Below, one piece after another: positions 52,081 through 64,000 of a stretch of DNA of 64,000 nucleotides. The notes under the pieces were generated by a model. That model saw nothing but the letters and a program-made list of their open reading frames with translations, was not told where the DNA came from and did not search any database. The translations under genes were made by a program, and so were the position numbers. Every line of letters starts with the position of its first letter. Position 1 is the first letter of the stretch. Origin of the DNA: an uncultured Clostridia bacterium (lineage in GTDB: Bacteria; Bacillota; Clostridia; TANB77; CAG-508); NCBI GenBank assembly GCA_944392105.1, contig CALXVM010000001.1:110514-174513 (forward strand). The letters are read 5' to 3'.

Positions 52081-53295
52081 ATGGAAAAAAGAAATTCACA
52101 ACAAGTTTATAAAACAATAATGCTTATTATTATAACAGTATTAATTACTGCTTTAGTTACTACAATTGTAATATATAATTTTGTAATAAAATCTGGTAAA
52201 ATTGCTATTAAAAGTGAAGACAATAGTAGTTTAAGTGGATTAGAAGCAACACTAGCAAGCTTTAGAAGTGTATTAGAAGAAAAATACATGGGAGAGATAG
52301 ATGATGAAGCATTAATAGAAGGTGCAATAAAAGGCTATGTTAGTGCTTTAGGAGACCCATATACTACATATTATACAAAAGAAGAAATGGATGAACTTAT
52401 GGAAGAAACAACTGGAAATTATGTTGGAATTGGTATATATATGACATTAGATTTAGAAAATAATGCAATATATGTAGTAAAACCAATGGAAGGTTCACCA
52501 GCAGAGGAAGCTGGAATACAAGCAGGAGATTTAATTACTAAAGTAGATGGTAAAGAATATTCTGGAGAAGAACTAGACCAAGCTTCTAATGCAATTAAGG
52601 GAGAAGAAGGAACAACTGTTAAGCTAGAAATACTAAGAGATGGAGAAACACAAGAATTAGAAGTAGAAAGAAGAAAAATTGTTGTTTCACACATTGTAGA
52701 AAAGAAATTTGATAATGTTGGTTATTTATTAATAGAGGACTTTGATGGCGGTTGTGCAAAAGAATTTGAAGAAAAATATAAAGAGTTAGAAAGTCAAGGA
52801 ATAGATAGGCTAATAATAGACCTTAGAAATAATGGTGGCGGAGTAGTTGATGAAGCTGTTTCTATAGCAGATATGTTATTAGACAAAGACGATACAATAC
52901 TAATTACAAAAGATAAAAAAGGTAATGAAGAAATAACTAAATCTGAGCATAATCCAACTATAACAATGCCTGTAGTAGTACTTACAAATGGATATTCAGC
53001 AAGTGCATCTGAAATATTAGTAGGAGCTTTACAAGACAATGAAAGAGCTACAATAGTAGGAACCAAAACTTATGGAAAAGGTGTAATTCAAGAGGTAGAT
53101 AGACTAAATGATGGAAGTGGCTTAAAAATAACTATAGAAGAATATTACACACCAAATAAAAATGAAATAAATAAGGTAGGAATAGAGCCAGATGAAGAAA
53201 TAGATTTATCTGACGAAGTAAAAGAACAAGGAACTTATACAGATGAGGAAGACAATCAATTGCAAAAGGCAATTGAGATTATAAAAGAAAAATAG
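52081..53295 (+). CDS. ctpA: Carboxy-terminal processing protease (S41, PDZ-containing)
   Basis: N-terminal TM helix, PDZ domain (GSPAEEAGIQAGDLITKVDG) and S41 core (...TNGYSASASEILVGAL...KTYGKG). Confidence 0.8.
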   Translation: MEKRNSQQVYKTIMLIIITVLITALVTTIVIYNFVIKSGKIAIKSEDNSSLSGLEATLASFRSVLEEKYMGEIDDEALIEGAIKGYVSALGDPYTTYYTKEEMDELMEETTGNYVGIGIYMTLDLENNAIYVVKPMEGSPAEEAGIQAGDLITKVDGKEYSGEELDQASNAIKGEEGTTVKLEILRDGETQELEVERRKIVVSHIVEKKFDNVGYLLIEDFDGGCAKEFEEKYKELESQGIDRLIIDLRNNGGGVVDEAVSIADMLLDKDDTILITKDKKGNEEITKSEHNPTITMPVVVLTNGYSASASEILVGALQDNERATIVGTKTYGKGVIQEVDRLNDGSGLKITIEEYYTPNKNEINKVGIEPDEEIDLSDEVKEQGTYTDEEDNQLQKAIEIIKEK

Positions 53296-55011: not shown

Positions 55012-55078
55012 TAGCATATGAAAAAGTTTAATGTTATAAAAATTTTTTCAAAAAAATAAAAAAAATTGTAAAATTGTA

Positions 55079-55107
55079 TTGACAAGTGACTAAAAATTTA
55101 GTATACT
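55079..55107 (+). promoter_or_regulatory. tRNA operon promoter TTGACA, 17 nt, TATACT, bracketed by the 9-bp inverted repeat caagtgact / agtcacttg
   Basis: -35 at 55079-55084; -10 at 55102-55107. Inverted repeat at 55083-55091 and 55113-55121. Confidence 0.6.
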
Positions 55108-55125: not shown

Positions 55126-55201
55126 GGGCGCATAGCTCAGCTGGGAGAGCATCTGCCTTACAAGCAGGAGGTCATAGGTTCGAGCCCTATTGCGCCCACC
55201 A
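55126..55201 (+). tRNA. tRNA-Val (anticodon TAC)
   Basis: Cloverleaf with anticodon loop cTTACaa and 3' CCA. Confidence 0.9.
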
Positions 55202-55212
55202 TTTTTATAAAT

Positions 55213-55289
55213 GGCCTGGTAGTTCAGTTGGTTAGAATGCTAGCCTGTCACGCTAGAGGTCGACGGTTCGAGCCCGTTCCAGGTCGCCA
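55213..55289 (+). tRNA. tRNA-Asp (anticodon GTC)
   Basis: Cloverleaf with anticodon loop cTGTCAc and 3' CCA. Confidence 0.9.
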
Positions 55290-55397
55290 TTTTTTTAGCC
55301 AAATAGTTTAAAATAAACATTTGGCAATTTTTAAATAAAAGCACATATATTAATAAGGAAATATGTATGTGCAATACAAATTAATATAGTTATGAAT

Positions 55398-55445
55398 GCC
55401 TTGATAGCTCAGTTGGTAGAGCAAGGGACTGAAAATCTTTGGTGC
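55398..55445 (+). pseudogene. Degenerate 5' half of tRNA-Phe (acceptor, D and anticodon arms only), a duplicated fragment
   Basis: gccttgatagctcagttggtagagcaagggactgaaaatctttgg. It matches the intact tRNA-Phe up to the anticodon arm and lacks the T arm. Confidence 0.7.
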
Positions 55446-55453
55446 AATTTAAT

Positions 55454-55529
55454 GCCTTGATAGCTCAGTTGGTAGAGCAAAGGACTGAAAATCCTTGTGT
55501 CACTGGTTCGATTCCAGTTCAAGGCACCA
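55454..55529 (+). tRNA. tRNA-Phe (anticodon GAA)
   Basis: 76-nt cloverleaf with anticodon loop cTGAAaa and 3' CCA. Confidence 0.9.
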
Positions 55530-55605
55530 AACAATCATTTGTACCAAAAAAATTAAATTTTTTACTAACATCTAAAAAAATATCTAAAAAATTTAATTTT
55601 ATGAT

Positions 55606-55645
55606 TTTCAGTTCAAAGACACGAGTTCGATTCTCGTTCAAGCCA
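55606..55645 (+). repeat. tRNA 3'-end-like fragment (T arm plus acceptor 3' strand), a probable att-site remnant next to the integrase
   Basis: cacgagttcgattctcgttcaagcca resembles tRNA-Phe cactggttcgattccagttcaaggca but cannot pair with its 5' strand. Confidence 0.5.
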
Positions 55646-55666
55646 CATAATATTTTAGAAGTAGAA

Positions 55667-56842
55667 TTAGGCAATGGCTACTTCTTTTTTTGTACCAAAT
55701 ACATTTGCCATAACTTTTCCTGTATTATTTACACTACTTGAATCTAAATGTGCATATAAGTTAGCAGTAGTATTATAATTTGAATGACCAAGCCACGCTT
55801 GAATTTCTTTCATATTCGCACCATTTTTTAATAATATACTTGCACAAGTATGCCTTAAATCGTGAAAACGAATAATTTTTAAATTCTTTCTTTTTAGTAA
55901 TTTTAAAAATGTTTCTGTTACATAGTCTGGTCTAATTATATTTCCACAATTATCTACACAAATATATTCTAAATAATCTTTATTGTAACTATCTCCACAT
56001 AGTTCTCTGTTTTTTTCTTGTTTTTCTTTTAGTTCAATTAAAAAAGATTTTACAATAGGTTCTAAAGGTAAAGTCCTTTTACTTGATTTTGTCTTTGTTT
56101 TATCTCTTATAATTAGTTTTCCGCTTGACTGTGTAATGGTGTGATCTATTGTAATTGTATCATTTTCAAAATCAACTGCACTCCATTTCAACCCAATAAC
56201 TTCACTTCTTCTAAAACCATAAAAACAATCTATCATTACAGGAATTTCTAATTTAGTTCCAATAACTTCATTTAGTAATATTTTAACCTCATTACTTGTG
56301 TAGAATTTTGGCTTATATTCTTCAATTTTAGGTAAATCAACCTTGTCAGCAGGGTTAGATAAAATAATATCTGTTTTCATAGCATATTGTAAGGCTTTCC
56401 TTATATTTGCGTGATAATGTTTAACTGTATTTCCAGAAAGACCATCATCTAATAAATATTGGTAAAATTCTTGTATGTGCTTTGGCTTTATATTTTGTAG
56501 TGTTATTTTTGTATTTTTGAAATAATCTGTCATTCTGCCATTTATAACACCTTGATAGCCATTTAAGGTTGTTGGCTCAACACTTGCTGAAATCATTTTT
56601 AGCCATTTTTTCATATAGTCTATAAAGAGTATATCTTCATTATCAATATTATCGCTATTTATTTCTTCTTGAAACTTTTTCCTAATCTCTTCTTTTTTAG
56701 TTTCTGCCTTTTTCTTATTTCCTTTTATAGCTTTTATACCTGTTGACTTCCATTTTGTTTCCCATTTTTCATTTTTCTTATAACTTAAAACGGCTTGATA
56801 AATACCGTTTCTTATCTGTAAGCTAGCTGTTACATTTATCAT
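55667..56842 (-). CDS. int: Tyrosine-type site-specific integrase
   Basis: C-terminal catalytic motifs RFHDLRHTCASILL and LGHSNYNTTANLYAHL. GGAAGGAG site. Confidence 0.9.
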   Translation of the reverse strand: MINVTASLQIRNGIYQAVLSYKKNEKWETKWKSTGIKAIKGNKKKAETKKEEIRKKFQEEINSDNIDNEDILFIDYMKKWLKMISASVEPTTLNGYQGVINGRMTDYFKNTKITLQNIKPKHIQEFYQYLLDDGLSGNTVKHYHANIRKALQYAMKTDIILSNPADKVDLPKIEEYKPKFYTSNEVKILLNEVIGTKLEIPVMIDCFYGFRRSEVIGLKWSAVDFENDTITIDHTITQSSGKLIIRDKTKTKSSKRTLPLEPIVKSFLIELKEKQEKNRELCGDSYNKDYLEYICVDNCGNIIRPDYVTETFLKLLKRKNLKIIRFHDLRHTCASILLKNGANMKEIQAWLGHSNYNTTANLYAHLDSSSVNNTGKVMANVFGTKKEVAIA

Positions 56843-56934
56843 AAATAACTCCTTCCTATTTCTATAACAGTCTAAATTTAACTTACTATTGATATTTATG
56901 ATAATAACATAAAAGTAAATTAAAATCTAGTTTA

Positions 56935-57141
56935 TTAATTCTGTCTAGTTAAATAACTTATAATATTTCTTTTTGGTATTTTATATTCTCTACCAATTTT
57001 AAAAGCAGGAATAGTATTGTTTTTAACTAACCTATAAGCTAGTGTAACACCAATTCCTAACATTTCTTTTAATTGAACAATGTTTACTAAATCAGGGTAT
57101 GAAGTAAACATCATATCATAATTTTCTTTCAAAGTACCCAT
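56935..57141 (-). CDS. Excisionase-like HTH DNA-binding protein
   Basis: ...VQLKEMLGIGVTLAYRLVKNNTIPAFKIGREYKIPKRNI (MerR/Xis-type HTH). AAGGAGG site. Confidence 0.65.
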   Translation of the reverse strand: MGTLKENYDMMFTSYPDLVNIVQLKEMLGIGVTLAYRLVKNNTIPAFKIGREYKIPKRNIISYLTRQN

Positions 57142-57190
57142 AATTAAAACCTCCTTAAAAATAAAATAAAAAGACCTTATTTAAAATCTT

Positions 57191-57640
57191 TTAAACAAGG
57201 CATTTTTGCGATTTAAGTTTCATATTCATATTAATTTTTTTAGGAACATCATTTGTTACATTTAATTTTCTATCTATAATTAAATTTCCTTTTTTATTTC
57301 TATGATAAGCACTTAAATTCCATTTTGCAAAATCATAATCAGAAATAGTATTGTTATGAAATGATAATTCAGCATTGTCTTTGTTTAATAATGCTTTTAA
57401 TTGTTCATAAGAATTATCATCTTTTTTAGGTCTTTCATAGTTTTTATAATATTCTCTATTATATTCAGCTTTTTTCTGCATTGATTTTTTATGCCTTATT
57501 TCTTTCTCCTTAGTATATCTTGTGTCTTTTTTCACTACTTGAGATATATAGCTTTGTGAAACTCCAATAGTTTTGGCAATAATCTCTTGTTTTTGGTGTT
57601 CTTCAAAATACATTTGTAAAATTTCTTCTTTTTTACTCAT
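57191..57640 (-). CDS. HTH transcriptional regulator (sigma-70 region-4-like)
   Basis: ...QKQEIIAKTIGVSQSYISQVVKK; GGAGG site. Confidence 0.5.
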   Translation of the reverse strand: MSKKEEILQMYFEEHQKQEIIAKTIGVSQSYISQVVKKDTRYTKEKEIRHKKSMQKKAEYNREYYKNYERPKKDDNSYEQLKALLNKDNAELSFHNNTISDYDFAKWNLSAYHRNKKGNLIIDRKLNVTNDVPKKINMNMKLKSQKCLV

Positions 57641-57914: not shown

Positions 57915-58883
57915 ATGAGAATGAATTTAGAATATGGCTTTAATAATGAGTCATTACCAAAATTTAAAGAATATAAAATAAAGGAAATAAACAATATTAA
58001 ATATGTTGTTCCTAAAATTCTAAAAGAAAATATGTCAAACTATTCTTTAATCGATTTTGATGACTACAAAGAAGATGATAAGCCTCTAATTGATTTTATT
58101 AATTTAGGGAAATTATCTTTAGAAGAAAAAGAAAATACTGATAGTCTAGTAATTGAATATGTAAATAAATATGGACTTTTAGGACTTATACATGATTTCC
58201 CAGTAAATAGATATTATACATTAGAAAAGGAAGTTTTACTAAAAGAATTTAATTATATAAATAATAAAGATTATTTTACAACAATAGAGCTAATTGAATA
58301 TTTTAAAATATTCTTTCCTACTACTACTGAAGAAGAAATAAAAAAACTAATAGAGAAAATAAATAAATTTATTTATGAGCATAGTATGGAAAAATTTATT
58401 TCTCCAGAAATCAATAATTTAATTTATAAAAATGAAAAATATTGTGAGCGAGTAAATATGATTATAAAATATGCACAATTTATGTATAATACTTTAAAAG
58501 AATTGAAAAAAGATAATGGAGAATATATTGATACACGAGAAATAAATAAATTAGAATCAAACCATATAAGAGTAAATTTAGAATATGATGGCTTAACAAT
58601 ACATATTAGAAGTTTAAAAGAATACATAGATGAAGATTTTAAATTATATGCAATACAAGAAAAGAAATACTTAAAACTATGTAAGCATTGTGGAAAAGCA
58701 TTTATTGCAAGTAACCCAAAAGCAATATATGATACATTTAGCTGTAAAAATCAAGAAAATGTTTACAATAGTAGAGCAAGGTTAAGTTCGAATGTTACAA
58801 AGACCAAAAACGGACTAACAGTTAAAGTAACACCAAGTGAAGAATTGTCAAATGAACTATTAAAAAATCCAGAAAAAAATTAA
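57915..58883 (+). CDS. Hypothetical protein with a C-terminal zinc ribbon
   Basis: CKHCGKAFIASNPKAIYDTFSCKNQ; no other recognisable domain. Confidence 0.4.
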   Translation: MRMNLEYGFNNESLPKFKEYKIKEINNIKYVVPKILKENMSNYSLIDFDDYKEDDKPLIDFINLGKLSLEEKENTDSLVIEYVNKYGLLGLIHDFPVNRYYTLEKEVLLKEFNYINNKDYFTTIELIEYFKIFFPTTTEEEIKKLIEKINKFIYEHSMEKFISPEINNLIYKNEKYCERVNMIIKYAQFMYNTLKELKKDNGEYIDTREINKLESNHIRVNLEYDGLTIHIRSLKEYIDEDFKLYAIQEKKYLKLCKHCGKAFIASNPKAIYDTFSCKNQENVYNSRARLSSNVTKTKNGLTVKVTPSEELSNELLKNPEKN

Positions 58884-59051
58884 ATATAATATGATAAAAA
58901 GGGTATTTGCTGTACTCTTTTTGTTTTATGCAAAAGCACTTTATATACAACCTGTTTACACTCATATGTGAGCAATAAGAATAAGTATCATTAAAAAACA
59001 AAATTTAATATAATTCAAATGGTTGTAGAACGAGCAGTAGGAGGTGTGTAT

Positions 59052-59396
59052 ATGAGTGCAATAGATAGATTATATTCTAGTACCAATAAAACTATAAAGA
59101 AATCAATTAATATTGATGATAGTTTATATAAAAGGTTAATGAGATTTACAAAAAAGAATTATGACGCAACATTTAGTGAGGTTATAAATGTGTGCATAGA
59201 AGAATATATTTATAAAAATCAACCATACTTTTATGAAAAGCCTGAAAATGAAACAGTTACATATAGGAGTATTATGATCAGAAAGGAAAATTTAAGCAAC
59301 TTGCAAAAATTTCACAAAAAAACTGGTATTTCTGTAACAAGATTATTAAATTGTGCTGTTAAAGAATTTTTAGATAACTATGATAATAAAAGATAA
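59052..59396 (+). CDS. Hypothetical 114-aa protein, paralog A (MSAIDRLY...)
   Basis: AGGAGGTG site. About 55% identical to the protein at 60276-60614. Confidence 0.5.
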   Translation: MSAIDRLYSSTNKTIKKSINIDDSLYKRLMRFTKKNYDATFSEVINVCIEEYIYKNQPYFYEKPENETVTYRSIMIRKENLSNLQKFHKKTGISVTRLLNCAVKEFLDNYDNKR

Positions 59397-59472
59397 GTTA
59401 ATATAAAATATCAACTTACCTTATATTATAAAACACAATGTAGTTTATTATATAATGAGTTTATATAATAAG

Positions 59473-60112
59473 CTATTTTTTATTTAAGGCAATATAATAT
59501 GCTAAACTGCTTTGATAAGATGAAAGTTCAAAATCTATTTTTTGATATTCATAAAATTTTTTCCTTTCTTCTGCTGAAAAATTAGATGTAAGTTCTAGTG
59601 TTAATTTATTAAACTTGCGATTAAGTTCAACATAATCTTTTATATCAAACAAATCATTTATATGTACTTCTATACTATCATCTACCTTATCCATATTGCT
59701 TTTGTTAAACCAATTCAAGTCAATTTTAATATTTTTTATAGATTCTAGTTCATAAACTCCGTTTAGTTTTAAAGAAAATTGCAAGACCATCTAATTTATT
59801 ATCAAAAAATAACGGAAAAATCATTTGTGAAAAATATTCTACTTCATCATTTTCTACAATTTTTTTGAAGTTATCATTTAAAAGTAAATATAAATCTTCT
59901 GAAAACTCTTTATTTTTCCACTCTTTTATTAAATTGAGCATATCTGTACTTAAAGGCTTATGCCAGTAATTATCATAGTCCAAAGTAATATCATTTTTTT
60001 CATCTACTATTCCATATTGAATTGTTTTTAAATCAGCAATTAGAATATTAGATTTTACATTAGAGCCGTTAAAAGATTTTAATAAATCTACACACTTTTC
60101 TGAAATTTGCAT
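59473..60112 (-). pseudogene. Hypothetical protein of about 212 aa, split by a frameshift in the T/A tract near 59770-59785
   Basis: Two overlapping ORFs (59750-60112 and 59473-59790) read continuously after a 1-nt shift. AAAGGAGG site precedes the start at 60112. Confidence 0.45.
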
Positions 60113-60275
60113 AGGTAAACCTCCTTTCTAATATTTTCACATATTATATCTTAAAAGTGATTTTAATTCAACCTACTATCGTGTATGCATACACGATAAA
60201 ACTAAGTTACATACTACAAACGATTTAAGTATAATATTCGTAAAAAGGTTAGATATTAATTACTGGAGGTGTAAT

Positions 60276-60614
60276 ATGAGTGCAATAGATAGGTTATATA
60301 AAAAATCAAACTATACAATTCAAAAAAGTATAAATTTAGAAGATGGATTATATACGAGATTAAAAGAAATAGTAGATAAAGACTATGACGCAACAATTAG
60401 CGATATGATAAATGTTTGTATTGAAGATTTACTATCTGCTGGAAATGTAAAATATTATGCTAAGCCAGAAGATGAAATAACAATTTATAGGAGTGTAATG
60501 ATTAGAAAAGAAAATGTAGAAGCATTGAACAAAATAACACAAGAAACGGGAATTTCCCTAACAAGATTAGTAAATATAGCAATGAAAGAATTTTTAGATA
60601 AATATAAAAAATAA
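60276..60614 (+). CDS. Hypothetical 112-aa protein, paralog B (MSAIDRLY...)
   Basis: GGAGGTG site. Paralog of the protein at 59052-59396. Confidence 0.5.
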   Translation: MSAIDRLYKKSNYTIQKSINLEDGLYTRLKEIVDKDYDATISDMINVCIEDLLSAGNVKYYAKPEDEITIYRSVMIRKENVEALNKITQETGISLTRLVNIAMKEFLDKYKK

Positions 60615-60791
60615 AATGTAGAAGATTATCATAAGAATTGATAATCTTTTATTTTTATGATATTATTCTTTTAGAATAATAATAAGTTGTTGCTGAGATT
60701 GTGTTTCTAAATATTGTAAAAATGCAAATAGAAAATACATAAACTGAAAGATTATAGACATTTAAATTTATTGTGTGTATTACAAAAAATG

Positions 60792-60820
60792 TTGATTTTA
60801 ATGAAAGAACATGGTAAAAT
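60792..60820 (+). promoter_or_regulatory. SigA promoter TTGATT, 17 nt, TG-n-TAAAAT driving the HAD/rSAM/SDR/rSAM operon
   Basis: -35 at 60792-60797; extended -10 at 60812-60820. Confidence 0.55.
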
Positions 60821-60857
60821 ACTATTTGTAAATTAATGTATACGAGGAGGTTGTCTA

Positions 60858-61607
60858 ATGAAAGATTTTTTAAAGAAAAAATTAGCTGATTTAGATTTGG
60901 TTATTTTTGATTTAGACGGTACTTTAATTGATTCAAATGGTACACATAATTATTTGGATATCGAATTAGCTCGCTCACTTGGAGAAAATAAAAGTTCAGA
61001 AGAAATCTTACAAGAAAGAGATGAGTTTATAAAAAATAATAGTACAGGCGATATATACTTAAATTATTGTGAGTATTTAAAAACAAAATATAATTCTGTT
61101 TTATCGGGAAAAGAAATTTTACAATTTCGAAGAAATTTATCAAAAAAAATTTCAAAAGATATTAAATATAAACCAGATGCAGACAAGATTATAAAATATT
61201 TAAAAAATCAAAATATAAAACTTGCTTTGGGCACAGTTTCAAGAAAAGAAACCATAGATATTTATATCAATGAAAATGAAAATATCAAAAATAAATGTAA
61301 TATTAAAGATTATTTTGACCTAATAGTAACTAAAGACGATGTAAAATTTAAAAAACCTAATCCAGAAGTTTATAATAAAATAATTGAAATTTTTCAAATA
61401 AATGACTTATCAAGATGTATTGTTATAGAAGATTCATTAACAGGTGTTCTTGCGGCAAAAAATGCTAATCTTGATGTTATAGTTATTTATGATGAATATT
61501 CTGATAAAGATAGAGAAAAAATAAATGAACTTGCAGATTATAGAATTTCAAATTTTAAAGAATTAATAAATTTGTTTGAAGAAAGTAAAAAGAGAGGAGA
61601 AAATTAA
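60858..61607 (+). CDS. HAD-superfamily hydrolase (beta-phosphoglucomutase-like, subfamily IA)
   Basis: LVIFDLDGTLIDS...; GAGG site. Confidence 0.7.
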   Translation: MKDFLKKKLADLDLVIFDLDGTLIDSNGTHNYLDIELARSLGENKSSEEILQERDEFIKNNSTGDIYLNYCEYLKTKYNSVLSGKEILQFRRNLSKKISKDIKYKPDADKIIKYLKNQNIKLALGTVSRKETIDIYINENENIKNKCNIKDYFDLIVTKDDVKFKKPNPEVYNKIIEIFQINDLSRCIVIEDSLTGVLAAKNANLDVIVIYDEYSDKDREKINELADYRISNFKELINLFEESKKRGEN

Positions 61608-62598
61608 AATGAGTTCACCATGTGTATTTAGAAAAAGAGAAACCAGCAATTATTTAGCATTTATTGAAATAACAAATAATTGCAACATGAAATGTAAACA
61701 TTGTATGAATTGGTCTGTTGAAAATTCAAACGAGGGTTTTGAAAAAGAAAATATACTAAAGTTAATAAAAGATCTATATGATAATAACACAGAGGAAATA
61801 TATATATCTGGAGGAGAACCTTTATTATATCCATATATTGATGAAGCAATTTTATATGCTAATTCATTAGGAATAAAAGTAACTCTTGCAACTAATGCTC
61901 TTGAAATTGCTAATCATTTAGAAACAATAAAAAAGGGTGTTCAATTAGTATCAATTAGTTTAGATGGTATAGGAGAAACACATGATAATTTTAGAGGTGT
62001 TCCAGGAGCATTTGACAATTGTATAAAAATGTTTAAATTATTGAAGCAAAATAACATAAAAACAAGAATAAGTGCTATGATTTGGAAAGAAAATGTTGAG
62101 CAATTAGATGAAATGATTTCTCTTGCGAAATCTTGTGGAGTTTCTAAAGTTAATTTGGCATTTTTAATACCTGAAGGAAGAGCAAAGACAGATGATACTA
62201 TCAAACTACCTATTGAAATGTATAAAGAAATAGTTGATAAGGTAGCTGAGTTAAGACAAAAATATAAATCAGAAAATTTTGACGTAGAAATTAGAAGAAA
62301 TAATTTATTAGATGAAAATAGTATAGATTGTCCAGGAGGAAGAAACCTAATACATATAAATGTAAATGGAAAAGTATCACCTTGTTCATGGATTGCAAAA
62401 CTGGATAAAGATGATGAATTTTCTGCATATTGGCCAGAAAGTAGTATTAAACAATGTATAGATAAGTTTAGTGGTTTTGAAAAATTATTAAAATTAAGAA
62501 AAGAAAAATATGGATATTGTGGATGTATTGCTTTATCTAAAATTTATAATGGGAATTTTACTGATATAGATCCATTAAATAGTTTTTTGGAGATGTAG
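61608..62598 (+). CDS. Radical SAM enzyme with a Cys-rich C-terminus (SPASM/twitch-like)
   Basis: CNMKCKHC (CxxxCxxC) near the N-terminus; C-terminal CPGG...C..W...YGYCGC. AGAGGAG site; the ATG abuts the HAD stop codon. Confidence 0.75.
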
Positions 62599-63343
62599 AT
62601 GAATATGAATAAACATGCAATAATAACTGGTGTATCGTCAGGAATAGGTGAATGTATAGCTAATTACTTTATAGAAGAAGGCATATATGTTTTTGGAATT
62701 GATGAGAAGATTTCTAATAATAATAAAATAGAATTTTTTAATTGTGATATTAGAAATGAAGAAAAAATAATTGAAATAATCAATAATATAAAAGAAAAAA
62801 CAGATAGTATTGATTATTTGATAAATTCCGCTGGTATATTTTGCTATCAACGGAAGAGATTTAATTGAAAATCTTTCAAAGGAAGAATGGCAAAATGTTA
62901 TTGATGTTAATTTAACAGGTACTTTTTTGATAACAAAATATTCTATACCATTATTAAAAAATTCTAGCAATGGAAATATAATAAATTTTAGTTCGGAACA
63001 AGTGGTTTTACCACAAACTAAAAGTGCACCATATGCAATAACTAAAGCAGGAATTGAGATGTTTTCTAAGATACTTGCGTTTGAATTAATGGATAATAAA
63101 ATAAGAGTTAATACGATATCATTAGCTTCTGTAAAAACTAATTTCTTGAAAAGATATAAAAAAGATGATGATATAATAAATGAAATGATGAAAAAAACTG
63201 ACAAAAACATGCCTTTTGGAATTATAAAACCATATGATGTATATGAATTAGTTAAGTATTTGATTAAAGAAGATAACAAAATAACAGGTCAAACTATTCT
63301 TATGGATAGTGGGGTTGTTTTAGATATTAATAAGAAAAAGTAA
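62599..63343 (+). pseudogene. Short-chain dehydrogenase/reductase (SDR), interrupted by a +1 frameshift in a T4 tract at 62839-62842
   Basis: N-terminal TGVSSGIG (Rossmann) ... NSAGIF, then the frame shifts to ...SAPYAITKAG (YxxxK). One fewer T restores a single ORF. Confidence 0.65.
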
Positions 63344-63355
63344 GAGGAGAAATTT

Positions 63356-64000
63356 ATGAAGAAAATAGAATTTGATATAAATGAAAATAATAAACTATAT
63401 TTCCTTCCTGAATATAATAGATTTGCTTTAAATAAGATTGAGTCTGAAATAGAACCAGATTATTATGATACTTCATTAGTAAAATTAAGATTAGAAATTT
63501 CACATATGTGCAATGGAAGATGTAAATATTGTTTAGTGTTTGGAAATAATGTGGAAAATTTTGATACAATAGATATAAAAGAATTTTGGAAAGAATTTAG
63601 TAATAAAGACTGGTTTAAAAATTTAAAAAGTATATTTATTATTGGAGGAGAGCCATTACTTTTTTTTGATGAAATAAGTTTTATTTTAGATAATTTTAAT
63701 GGAAGGGTAAGTTTTTCAACAAATGGAACTTTATTAACAGAAGATATGGTTAAAAAGTTTTCAAAATCAAATGTTTCCGTATATATTTCATTAGATGGTC
63801 CAGCATTTGAAGATAATATTAATAGAGTTTATACAAATGGTGAATATATGTATCCAGATATTATAAAAGGAATTAATTTACTACAACAATATAATGTAAA
63901 ATTTGGAATATTTATGGTAGCAAGTAAAGAAACAATACATAAAGCTAAAGATATGATTTTAGAATTAGATGAAAAATATTCTCCATCTAGAATTGGATAT
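63356..64000 (+). CDS. Second radical SAM enzyme (partial; continues beyond the window)
   Basis: CNGRCKYC (CxxxCxxC); AGAGGAG site. Confidence 0.7.
   Translation, partial: MKKIEFDINENNKLYFLPEYNRFALNKIESEIEPDYYDTSLVKLRLEISHMCNGRCKYCLVFGNNVENFDTIDIKEFWKEFSNKDWFKNLKSIFIIGGEPLLFFDEISFILDNFNGRVSFSTNGTLLTEDMVKKFSKSNVSVYISLDGPAFEDNINRVYTNGEYMYPDIIKGINLLQQYNVKFGIFMVASKETIHKAKDMILELDEKYSPSRIGY

Follow-up and report, generated by a model that had tools for sequence, protein, structure and literature searches.

A mobilizable genomic island of about 15 kb has, with high probability, cut the phenylalanine tRNA (tRNA-Phe) gene of an uncultured Clostridia bacterium and brought a complete replacement gene with it. 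The junction lies in a stretch of 64,000 nucleotides (assembly GCA_944392105.1, contig CALXVM010000001.1, positions 110,514 to 174,513 of the forward strand), which is called the window here and supplies all coordinates unless a contig is named; everything from position 55438 onward would be the left part of the island. This strategy has so far been described for some bacteriophages, whereas here it is found in a family of non-phage elements of gut Clostridia. The features of the junction and its surroundings are collected in Table 1.

Results

A stranded host half and a complete foreign gene at the left junction

The left junction is marked by a 47-nt direct repeat (55395-55441 and 55451-55497, 96% identity) arranged head-to-tail with a period of 56 nt. 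ARAGORN and Rfam found an intact tRNA-Phe gene, and the repeat bore out an earlier sequence-only reading of this DNA in placing a copy of its 5' half upstream. That reading took the half for a degenerate duplicate of the intact gene, whereas comparison with the native locus showed that the half has the native allele and that the foreign sequence is the intact gene. Island-free contigs of the same species (L001-L008 and L010; n = 9) were recognised by an identical S41 peptidase, whose gene lies upstream of the tRNAs (52081-53295) and whose identical protein is found on many metagenome contigs. All nine carry a 567-aa gene followed by tRNA-Val, tRNA-Asp, and a single intact tRNA-Phe, with a DUF2207 gene ~150 nt past the latter. 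The island and both of the tRNA fragments seen in the window are absent from these nine contigs, in agreement with the earlier view that the fragments belong to the history of integration.

The host half spans the acceptor 5' strand, the D arm, the 5' strand of the anticodon stem (AGGGA, as in the native gene), the anticodon loop, and two further nucleotides. It departs from the native sequence right after ACTGAAAATC, where the native gene continues with CCTGTGTC and the window reads TTTGGTGCAATTTAAT instead. Since the match of the half to the native allele is exact as far as ACTGAAAATC and is lost beyond it, we take the half to be what a cut in the anticodon loop has left of the host's original tRNA-Phe gene, now a dead remnant that forms the bacterial arm of the left attachment site (attL). 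The comparison with island-free relatives proposed in the sequence-only reading thus defined the empty site and attL of the window island.

The intact gene is identical to the native allele at 72 of 76 positions, and the four differences make up two compensated pairs, A28:U42 and C50:G64 in place of the native G28:C42 and G50:C64. Its anticodon stem reads AAGGA/TCCTT (native, AGGGA/TCCCT) and its T stem ACTGG/CCAGT (native, AGTGG/CCACT). The 3' flank begins AACAATCATTTG and is unrelated to the native flank, which begins AGAGAAAAACAG; both flanks are of the element type. The two compensatory pairs, together with flanks that differ from the native ones on both sides, indicate that the intact gene is foreign and came with the island, the host's original gene being the truncated half. 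It starts 16 nt inside the left end of the island, co-oriented with the host Val-Asp-Phe operon, and it was identical in every island copy recovered. In the other contigs that encode an identical integrase, attL, the tRNA, the spacer, and the T-arm fragment described below were all 100% identical. The exact integrase was present in 24 index blocks versus 177 for the flanking S41 peptidase.

Contig ends also cluster at the junction. Contigs L022 and L068 break no more than 2 nt from the core, on both sides. The one with the identical integrase begins 2 nt after it, and the other, a 3-kb Logan contig from the DUF2207 side, begins at the first base past the core, which shows the breakpoint rather than the right attachment site (attR). 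As these contigs start at or within 2 nt of the core, the assembly graphs appear to branch at the crossover point.

Table 1 Features of the left island junction and its surroundings (window coordinates)
Feature	Coordinates	Strand	Evidence or remark
Promoter-like site TTGACA-17-TATACT	55079..55107	+	11/12 matches; upstream of the Val-Asp-Phe tRNA operon
tRNA-Val	55126-55201	+	ARAGORN and Rfam
tRNA-Asp	55213-55289	+	ARAGORN and Rfam
Host tRNA-Phe positions 1-40 (5' half)	55398..55437	+	Identical to the native allele of L001-L008 and L010
Common core ACTGAAAATC, 10 bp	55428..55437	+	Sole sequence common to attL and attR in L033, L037, L039, and L042
Island left end TTTGGTGCAATTTAAT (core arm C' plus short leader)	55438..55453	+	Without counterpart in island-free strains
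Intact tRNA-Phe(GAA)	55454-55529	+	ARAGORN and Rfam, 74.9 bits
Tandem candidate arm-type integrase sites CATCTAAAAAAATATCTAAAAAATTT	55569..55594	+	P' arm; kept here in all relatives
Putative tRNA-Phe 3' relic	55603..55645	+	Inverted core, 8 nt, T arm, acceptor 3' strand, discriminator A
Hairpin GAAGTAG...CTACTTC plus run of 7 T	55658..55691	+	Centroid structure; overlaps the integrase stop codon
Tyrosine integrase, 391 aa	55667..56842	-	PF00589, 1.5e-25, 90.4 bits (cut-off 27.1), plus SAM-like domains
Excisionase-family protein, 68 aa	56935..57141	-	PF12728 HTH_17; TIGR01764 'excise', 29.9 bits (cut-off 28.8)
Helix-turn-helix (HTH) protein, 149 aa	57191..57640	-	N-terminal HTH like sigma-70 region 4; weak Pfam/NCBIfam matches
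Island interior	57915..64000	.	322-aa gene, two RHH_3 paralogues, small open reading frames, then HAD, radical SAM, and split short-chain dehydrogenase cargo

The same layout in other gut Clostridia

Relatives of the integrase were collected by a scan of one genome per species, which gave 24 loci, all in uncultured gut Clostridia or related metagenome-assembled genomes. The integrase adjoins the tRNA-Phe of a Val-Asp-Phe cluster at each of the 17 loci with an examined downstream flank; in L043 the cluster is Asp-Phe and the contig ends there. Fifteen other genomes of uncultured gut Clostridia, with integrases 75-98% identical to that of the window, share one left-end order: a tRNA-Phe 5' half ending in ACTGAAAATC, then TTTGGTGCA plus 7 nt, a complete tRNA-Phe, AACAnTAATTTG..., a tandem pair of ATCTAAAAAA, a hairpin with a T run, and the integrase stop codon. 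In these genomes TTTGGTGCA directly follows host-specific 5' halves, of which at least eight variants were found, and the complete tRNA is nearly constant in most elements. A complete tRNA-Phe was carried by all relatives examined.

attR was found in four relatives (L033, L037, L039, and L042), where, 7.6-10 kb from the left junction, ...TAGCACrGAAA-ACTGAAAATC is followed by the 3' part of tRNA-Phe through CCA. L043, whose integrase is 47% identical, has an equivalent attR with a slightly different core, AAATTTAAA-ACTGAAAAT, and then the host 3' half. When the 5' half at attL was joined to the 3' half at attR, the sequences from L039, L042, and L043 folded as cloverleafs with fully paired acceptor stems, indicating that a single host gene was split in each of the three. 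In L044 and L049 two 5' halves are stacked, one of them from an element-type tRNA, which shows that the tRNA of an element already in place can itself serve as a target. Decayed copies were seen as well: L050 (3057-3200) has integrase fragments beside a lone tRNA-Phe with element-type 3' flanks and without a 5' half, and L048 (10273-10410) holds a further decayed element copy.

A sister clade of integrases, 44-49% identical, shows the same design on tRNA-Ser(CGA) in records deposited as 'Bacteriophage sp.' (L069, MT836101.1, 455-730; L072, MT839038.1, 1409-1680; L070, MT836946.1, 3640-3880). The order is a host 5' half that stops within the anticodon loop, ~150 nt, a complete tRNA-Ser, a hairpin, and the integrase gene. 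The L070 core has non-tRNA DNA upstream and may be the attachment site of the element itself (attP). A 44% identical integrase in Enterococcus faecalis (L071, NZ_CP143580.1, 1876-3469) has tRNA-Lys(CTT) just 5' of the HTH-integrase gene pair and no tRNA downstream.

The island encodes an integrase, an excisionase, and a MobV relaxase

Pfam and NCBIfam confirmed the integrase, excisionase, and regulator genes, and the sequence-only reading was right to see a tRNA-Phe integration site that holds a mobile element with these genes. By its catalytic domain the integrase belongs to the tyrosine recombinase/phage integrase family. Its closest solved relative is Tn1549 Int (6EMY, E = 6e-15, residues 115-370), and its GFRRSE, HDLRHT, GHSN, and LYAH motifs align with the catalytic R, HxxR, H, and Y of that protein. 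No arm-binding domain was found in the N terminus using Pfam. The gene for the 149-aa HTH protein leads the regulator-xis-int operon, before which there is a perfect -35/-10 promoter-like site on the minus strand (57866-57838).

Island contigs were recovered via the integrase and via the last complete island protein; they reach at most 13.9 kb and end after the relaxase or at tRNA repeats. The island interior genes are also present on contigs L011, L012, and L021-L028. The longest, L021, continues the island with three radical SAM genes, a HAD gene, the split short-chain dehydrogenase gene, a PNP-like gene, and genes for PfkB, a histidine phosphatase, and a relaxase that matches NF041497 MobV at 127.7 bits (cut-off 100). 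No phage structural, VirB4-/VirD4-type, or other mating-pore genes were found among the called genes of ~14 kb of island, and the island junction and the T-arm fragment had zero matches in IMG/VR. With a relaxase present, phage and mating-pore genes absent, and no IMG/VR matches, the gene content (integrase, excisionase, and MobV relaxase) assigns the element to the integrative mobilizable elements (IMEs) rather than to the phages. The relaxase region of L021 has ~70% DNA identity to the right parts of L033, L039, and L042. On this layout the island is expected to measure ~15 kb, with attR ~0.9 kb past the end of L021, near window coordinate 70.5 kb. At its other end L021 (1-1145) has an integrase gene shortened to 238 aa and then unrelated DNA, a decayed copy.

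Candidate arm-type sites and a proposed mechanism

The tandem ATCTAAAAAA repeats between the element tRNA and the integrase gene recur as a pair in the P arm, ~150 nt from the core, in L033, L037, L039, and L042. L043, with its more distant integrase, has a different repeat, GTCTAACAAA, in both arms. As the repeat sequence co-varies with the integrase, we consider the pairs to be candidate arm-type integrase sites at which binding would occur. Over the whole window ATCTAAAAAA is not enriched (3 matches versus 2.2 expected); what speaks for arm sites is that the repeats stand in tandem and are kept in both arms. A perfect 16-nt inverted repeat, AAAATTAAATTTTTTA / TAAAAAATTTAATTTT (55549-55564 and 55585-55600), brackets the repeats and is partly conserved in relatives.

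We propose that the integrase recombines the core of the element with the part of the host tRNA-Phe gene that encodes the anticodon stem-loop. An imperfect inverted repeat around the overlap region is the usual core architecture of tyrosine recombinases. The core site of the circular element is predicted to be GCACGGAAAA-CTGAAAA-TCTTTGGTGC, such an imperfect inverted repeat about the 7-nt anticodon loop, and the attP formed by excision is predicted to read GCACGGAAAACTGAAAATCTTTGGTGCAATTTAATGCCTTG. The loop sequence CTGAAAA (55429-55435) is likely the overlap or crossover region, in which case the integrase would bind the arms given by the anticodon stem and exchange strands across the loop. 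At the right end of the island the model expects the host 3' half CCTGTGTCAGTGGTTCGATTCCACTTCAAGGCACCAAGAG, preceded by ...GAAAACTGAAAATC, so that attR should read ...TAGCACGGAAAACTGAAAATC directly followed by CCTGTGTCAGTGGTTCGATTCCACTTCAAGGCACCAAGAGAAAAACAG and then the DUF2207 gene.

The island and the host share only the 10-bp core, and no tRNA is therefore rebuilt at the left junction. The element tRNA would instead be read from the promoter of the host operon, would be terminated at the hairpin downstream, would replace the lost function, and would be functionally required. The promoter-like site upstream of the operon is unchanged in island-free conspecific strains and probably now also drives the island tRNA-Phe. 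The hairpin is kept in relatives with compensatory variation and is likely the terminator of read-through from the tRNA operon. A whole gene combined with an invariant loop as target would let the element use the tRNA-Phe of any host without mismatched hybrid stems. The design would be advantageous because an element carrying only the 3' part would give mismatched acceptor, anticodon, and T stems in most of the hosts found here, which differ in their tRNA-Phe stems.

A second tRNA-like piece downstream of the element tRNA

The T-arm and acceptor fragment noticed in the sequence-only reading is real. Its T arm, ACGAG-TTCGATT-CTCGT (55621-55637), has a perfect 5-bp stem and is followed by TCAAGCC plus A (55638-55645); there is no CCA and no 5' partner, and Rfam gave only a weak partial T-arm match (E = 0.013). 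The fragment was said to be unable to pair with the tRNA-Phe 5' strand and hence probably to come from a different tRNA or an earlier element. The first point was overstated, as six of the seven acceptor pairs form with the local tRNA-Phe, the exception being a C-C mismatch at 2:71. As to the second, the fragment looks more like tRNA-Phe than like another tRNA; its acceptor strand plus discriminator equal those of the tRNA-Phe of hosts L039 and L046. tRNA-Glu(UUC) and tRNA-Lys were also considered as sources, given a TTTTCAG 'loop', and were set aside as less likely in view of their stems. The reverse complement of the 10-bp core, GATTTTCAGT, lies at 55603-55612, 8 nt 5' of the T stem, which is the register of a real tRNA-Phe. 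By chance, an inverted core would fall in this register with a probability of ~1.5e-6 if the 10-mer is counted and ~2e-5 if only the conserved 8-mer is.

Three forms of the spacer that separates the repeats from the terminator were found. The long form with the T arm is found in the window, L029, L030, and L033. Six elements have a medium form, TTTTCAGTTTAAAAGTACATA, which looks as if the long form had lost the DNA between two of its CAC repeats, and in six others the segment is missing altogether; TTTTCAGTT is retained even by elements without the T arm. In an integrase tree rooted with L043, elements with the long form fall on either side of the basal split, and this form is probably ancestral, module recombination being an alternative. 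Every island copy has the fragment, and so do relatives in other species, whose host tRNAs differ. The fragment therefore moves together with the element, and we assign it to element DNA rather than to the scar of a second local event.

By its sequence and position the fragment is most likely the decayed relic of an older element-borne tRNA-Phe that once stood just before the terminator and the integrase gene. The element tRNA occupies this position in L043 and in the tRNA-Ser sister clade. In our preferred reading, the former tRNA was superseded by the copy beside the core and then decayed, which leaves the flipped loop without explanation. The core within the relic may have been flipped in place after the new tRNA had been installed by the core, disabling a second recombination site. 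An intact tRNA ending in ACGAGTTCGATTCTCGTTCAAGCCACCA was not found in the JGI metagenomes. When 55596-55700 was folded, the only structures were the hairpins of the T arm and of the terminator, and the fold was no better than that of shuffled sequence (z = -0.38).

Weighing the alternatives

The sequence-only reading explained the three tRNA-like pieces within 250 nt by at least two successive integrations, in which the 5' half is a degenerate duplicate and the T-arm fragment a scar of an earlier element or of another tRNA. Stacked integrations are real in the family (L044 and L049) and the mismatched halves of L033 could be read in the same way, yet for the window we think this account very improbable. 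It is the intact gene, not the half, that differs from the native allele; the fragment, spacer, and tRNA do not vary among island copies, the fragment is found in elements of other species, and island-free strains have no scar. A single integration suffices, and the same junction is found in 15 other genomes. Still less credible is a local slippage duplication of a 56-nt unit unrelated to the island, with a canonical integration downstream or at the 3' end of the intact tRNA-Phe. The head-to-tail arrangement with its 56-nt period is what slippage would leave, but the differences between the copies are compensated only within the downstream gene. Moreover, the native locus has neither TTTGGTGCAATTTAAT nor the 3' flank of the intact gene, both of which are kept in 15 genomes beside host halves that are unrelated. 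Relatives have the host 3' half 7.6-10 kb off at the other end of the element, and the duplication was seen in 0 of the 9 island-free strains.

A third alternative concerns the relic, which might be a working part of the element, either a secondary, inverted core-type integrase site or an attR-type junction left by another element that integrated into a former element tRNA. The inverted 10-bp core in exact tRNA register, the survival of TTTTCAGTT in elements that lost the T arm, and the arm-type repeats directly upstream, as in the P arm, all fit such a role. Six elements without the segment nonetheless keep an intact integrase and attL, which argues that it is dispensable, and the fold is no more stable than that of shuffled sequences; the four copies are identical in the segment and thus give no covariation signal. 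We regard a working role as improbable, although less so than the two alternatives above, and prefer the decayed tRNA.

Several observations weigh against integration of one island that brought its own tRNA-Phe. The attR of the window island was not recovered in the window or in L021. The predicted attR junction had 0 matches in a JGI metagenome scan, no second copy of the tRNA 3' half was found within the window, and a walk along relaxase homologues toward attR reached only relatives with a serine recombinase. No circular attP form of this element family was observed. The two host halves of L033 mismatch, and by comparison with the others that locus has a longer and more complex history. The host may have further tRNA-Phe genes outside the 64-kb window, and it would depend on the element tRNA if it had none. 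Finally, the window element tRNA matches the host allele at 72 of 76 positions but the tRNA of elements with 97-98% identical integrases at only 64 of 76. On these identities the tRNA slot seems to have undergone exchange with the gene of a host closely related to this one, the flanks remaining of the element type, and it may be re-templated periodically from host genes. That the relic records a change of design and that, in addition, host genes re-template the tRNA slot is a joint reading to which we give tentative credence, somewhat above that of a working relic and well short of an even chance.

Other features of the island and its surroundings

The two RHH_3 paralogues (59019-59396 and 60276-60614) share a 161-nt stretch at 71% DNA identity, and two small minus-strand open reading frames sit between them. 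The short-chain dehydrogenase gene is divided between two open reading frames, 62599-62868 (89 aa) and 62927-63343 (138 aa), and was split in every island copy recovered; the pair may be a pseudogene that has become fixed or else a true gene in two parts. Relaxases 91-93% identical to the island's MobV ride ~11-kb elements with a large serine recombinase (among L054-L067). In those covered in full and upstream of the relaxase (L054 and L057-L066) a spoIIID gene plus TnpV is found at one end of these elements and the chromosomal contexts are varied; the elements with spoIIID may be another case of carrying a replacement copy of the target gene.

At the host locus, strains of the species are set apart by a 31-nt insertion or deletion immediately 5' of the tRNA operon promoter (window 55036-55037 versus L001 and L006-L008). 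In a related lineage (L009, 7524-8880), HTH_19 and DUF2726 genes lie between an intact tRNA-Phe and the DUF2207 gene, and hence the stretch 3' of tRNA-Phe, judged from this locus, varies for other reasons too.

Discussion

Lysogeny that depends on a tRNA brought by the phage has been described for Fionnbharth and other cluster K4 and L actinobacteriophages, with Lactobacillus johnsonii prophage Lj965 cited as a possible further case (Guerrero-Bustamante & Hatfull, mBio 2024, PMC10865867). In the Fionnbharth type the core is ~10 bp, no tRNA is rebuilt, and integrants are viable only with a phage-borne tRNA of the same isotype (PMC10865867). The window island resembles these phages in having a lambda-like tyrosine integrase, an attachment site (attB) inside a tRNA gene, and paired arm-type sites (here candidates) flanking the core. 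It also shares with them a core of such length, here the 10-bp ACTGAAAATC, and the delivery of a complete tRNA of the target isotype. In the window attL ends the host gene at position 40, and in the relatives attR has non-tRNA DNA before the core. Unlike the phages, it is an island with a MobV relaxase and metabolic cargo in low-GC gut Clostridia, without phage genes in ~14 kb, and unlike in the actinobacteriophages its target is tRNA-Phe, that of the sister clade being tRNA-Ser(CGA). The replacement tRNA also sits in attP, 16 nt from the core and in the orientation of the host operon, whereas Fionnbharth has its tRNA at another place in the genome, under a separate promoter.

Canonical tRNA islands (Islander, PMC4383910; Boilgate, PMC10865867) likewise have a tyrosine integrase encoded next to the tRNA and fragments of the target at the element ends, and those of the anticodon-loop class have a crossover at the loop with the symmetrical stem as likely binding sites, as proposed here. 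In canonical islands attP holds the segment from the crossover to the 3' end, so that a hybrid tRNA is regenerated and the displaced 3' part is found at the far end. In the present elements, identity to the host is confined to 10 bp, neither host half is left alive, and the replacement is a whole gene apart from them; in the window, attL reads TTTGGTGCAATTTAAT after the core, which is not tRNA sequence, and no hybrid is regenerated.

Elements of the Tn4451/Tn4453 type are counted among the comparable IMEs with MobV relaxases. The island is like the MobV/Mob_Pre IMEs of Firmicutes (PMC5704250, PMC5357655) in combining an integration/excision module with a single MobV relaxase and no conjugation pore genes. 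Modules are also exchanged as in the Firmicutes IMEs, since relaxases 91-93% identical to that of the island travel elsewhere with a large serine recombinase and TnpV. Text searches, with incomplete coverage of the literature, turned up no description of an IME that interrupts a tRNA gene while supplying a whole new copy.

Tn916 and Tn1549 have low target specificity and insert at AT-rich sites. The window integrase family differs in being strictly tied to one tRNA gene, although the Tn1549/Tn916 integrases (PDB 6EMY, 6EN0) include its closest solved sequence relative and the catalytic residues align.

The 2024 paper asked how frequent the strategy is outside the actinobacteriophages and how it is related in evolution to canonical tRNA integration (PMC10865867). 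The elements described here provide an example outside the phages and are widespread among uncultured Clostridia of the gut, with at least 16 species-level genomes plus the tRNA-Ser sister clade, and in which the replacement gene is wired straight into the host tRNA operon. Island finders keyed to a regenerated tRNA and a displaced 3' fragment will mis-delimit such elements, and annotators will label the foreign tRNA as a host gene. The 10-bp target and the self-contained cassette of integrase gene, attP, and tRNA could serve as an integration tool with a broad host range in Clostridia. Relics within the elements may record the transition between designs. If the tRNA slot is indeed re-templated from host genes, decayed copies such as that in L050 would leave an element-flanked tRNA as the resident gene, and the islands would carry tRNA-Phe alleles horizontally from one gut Clostridia host to another, in place of the resident ones.

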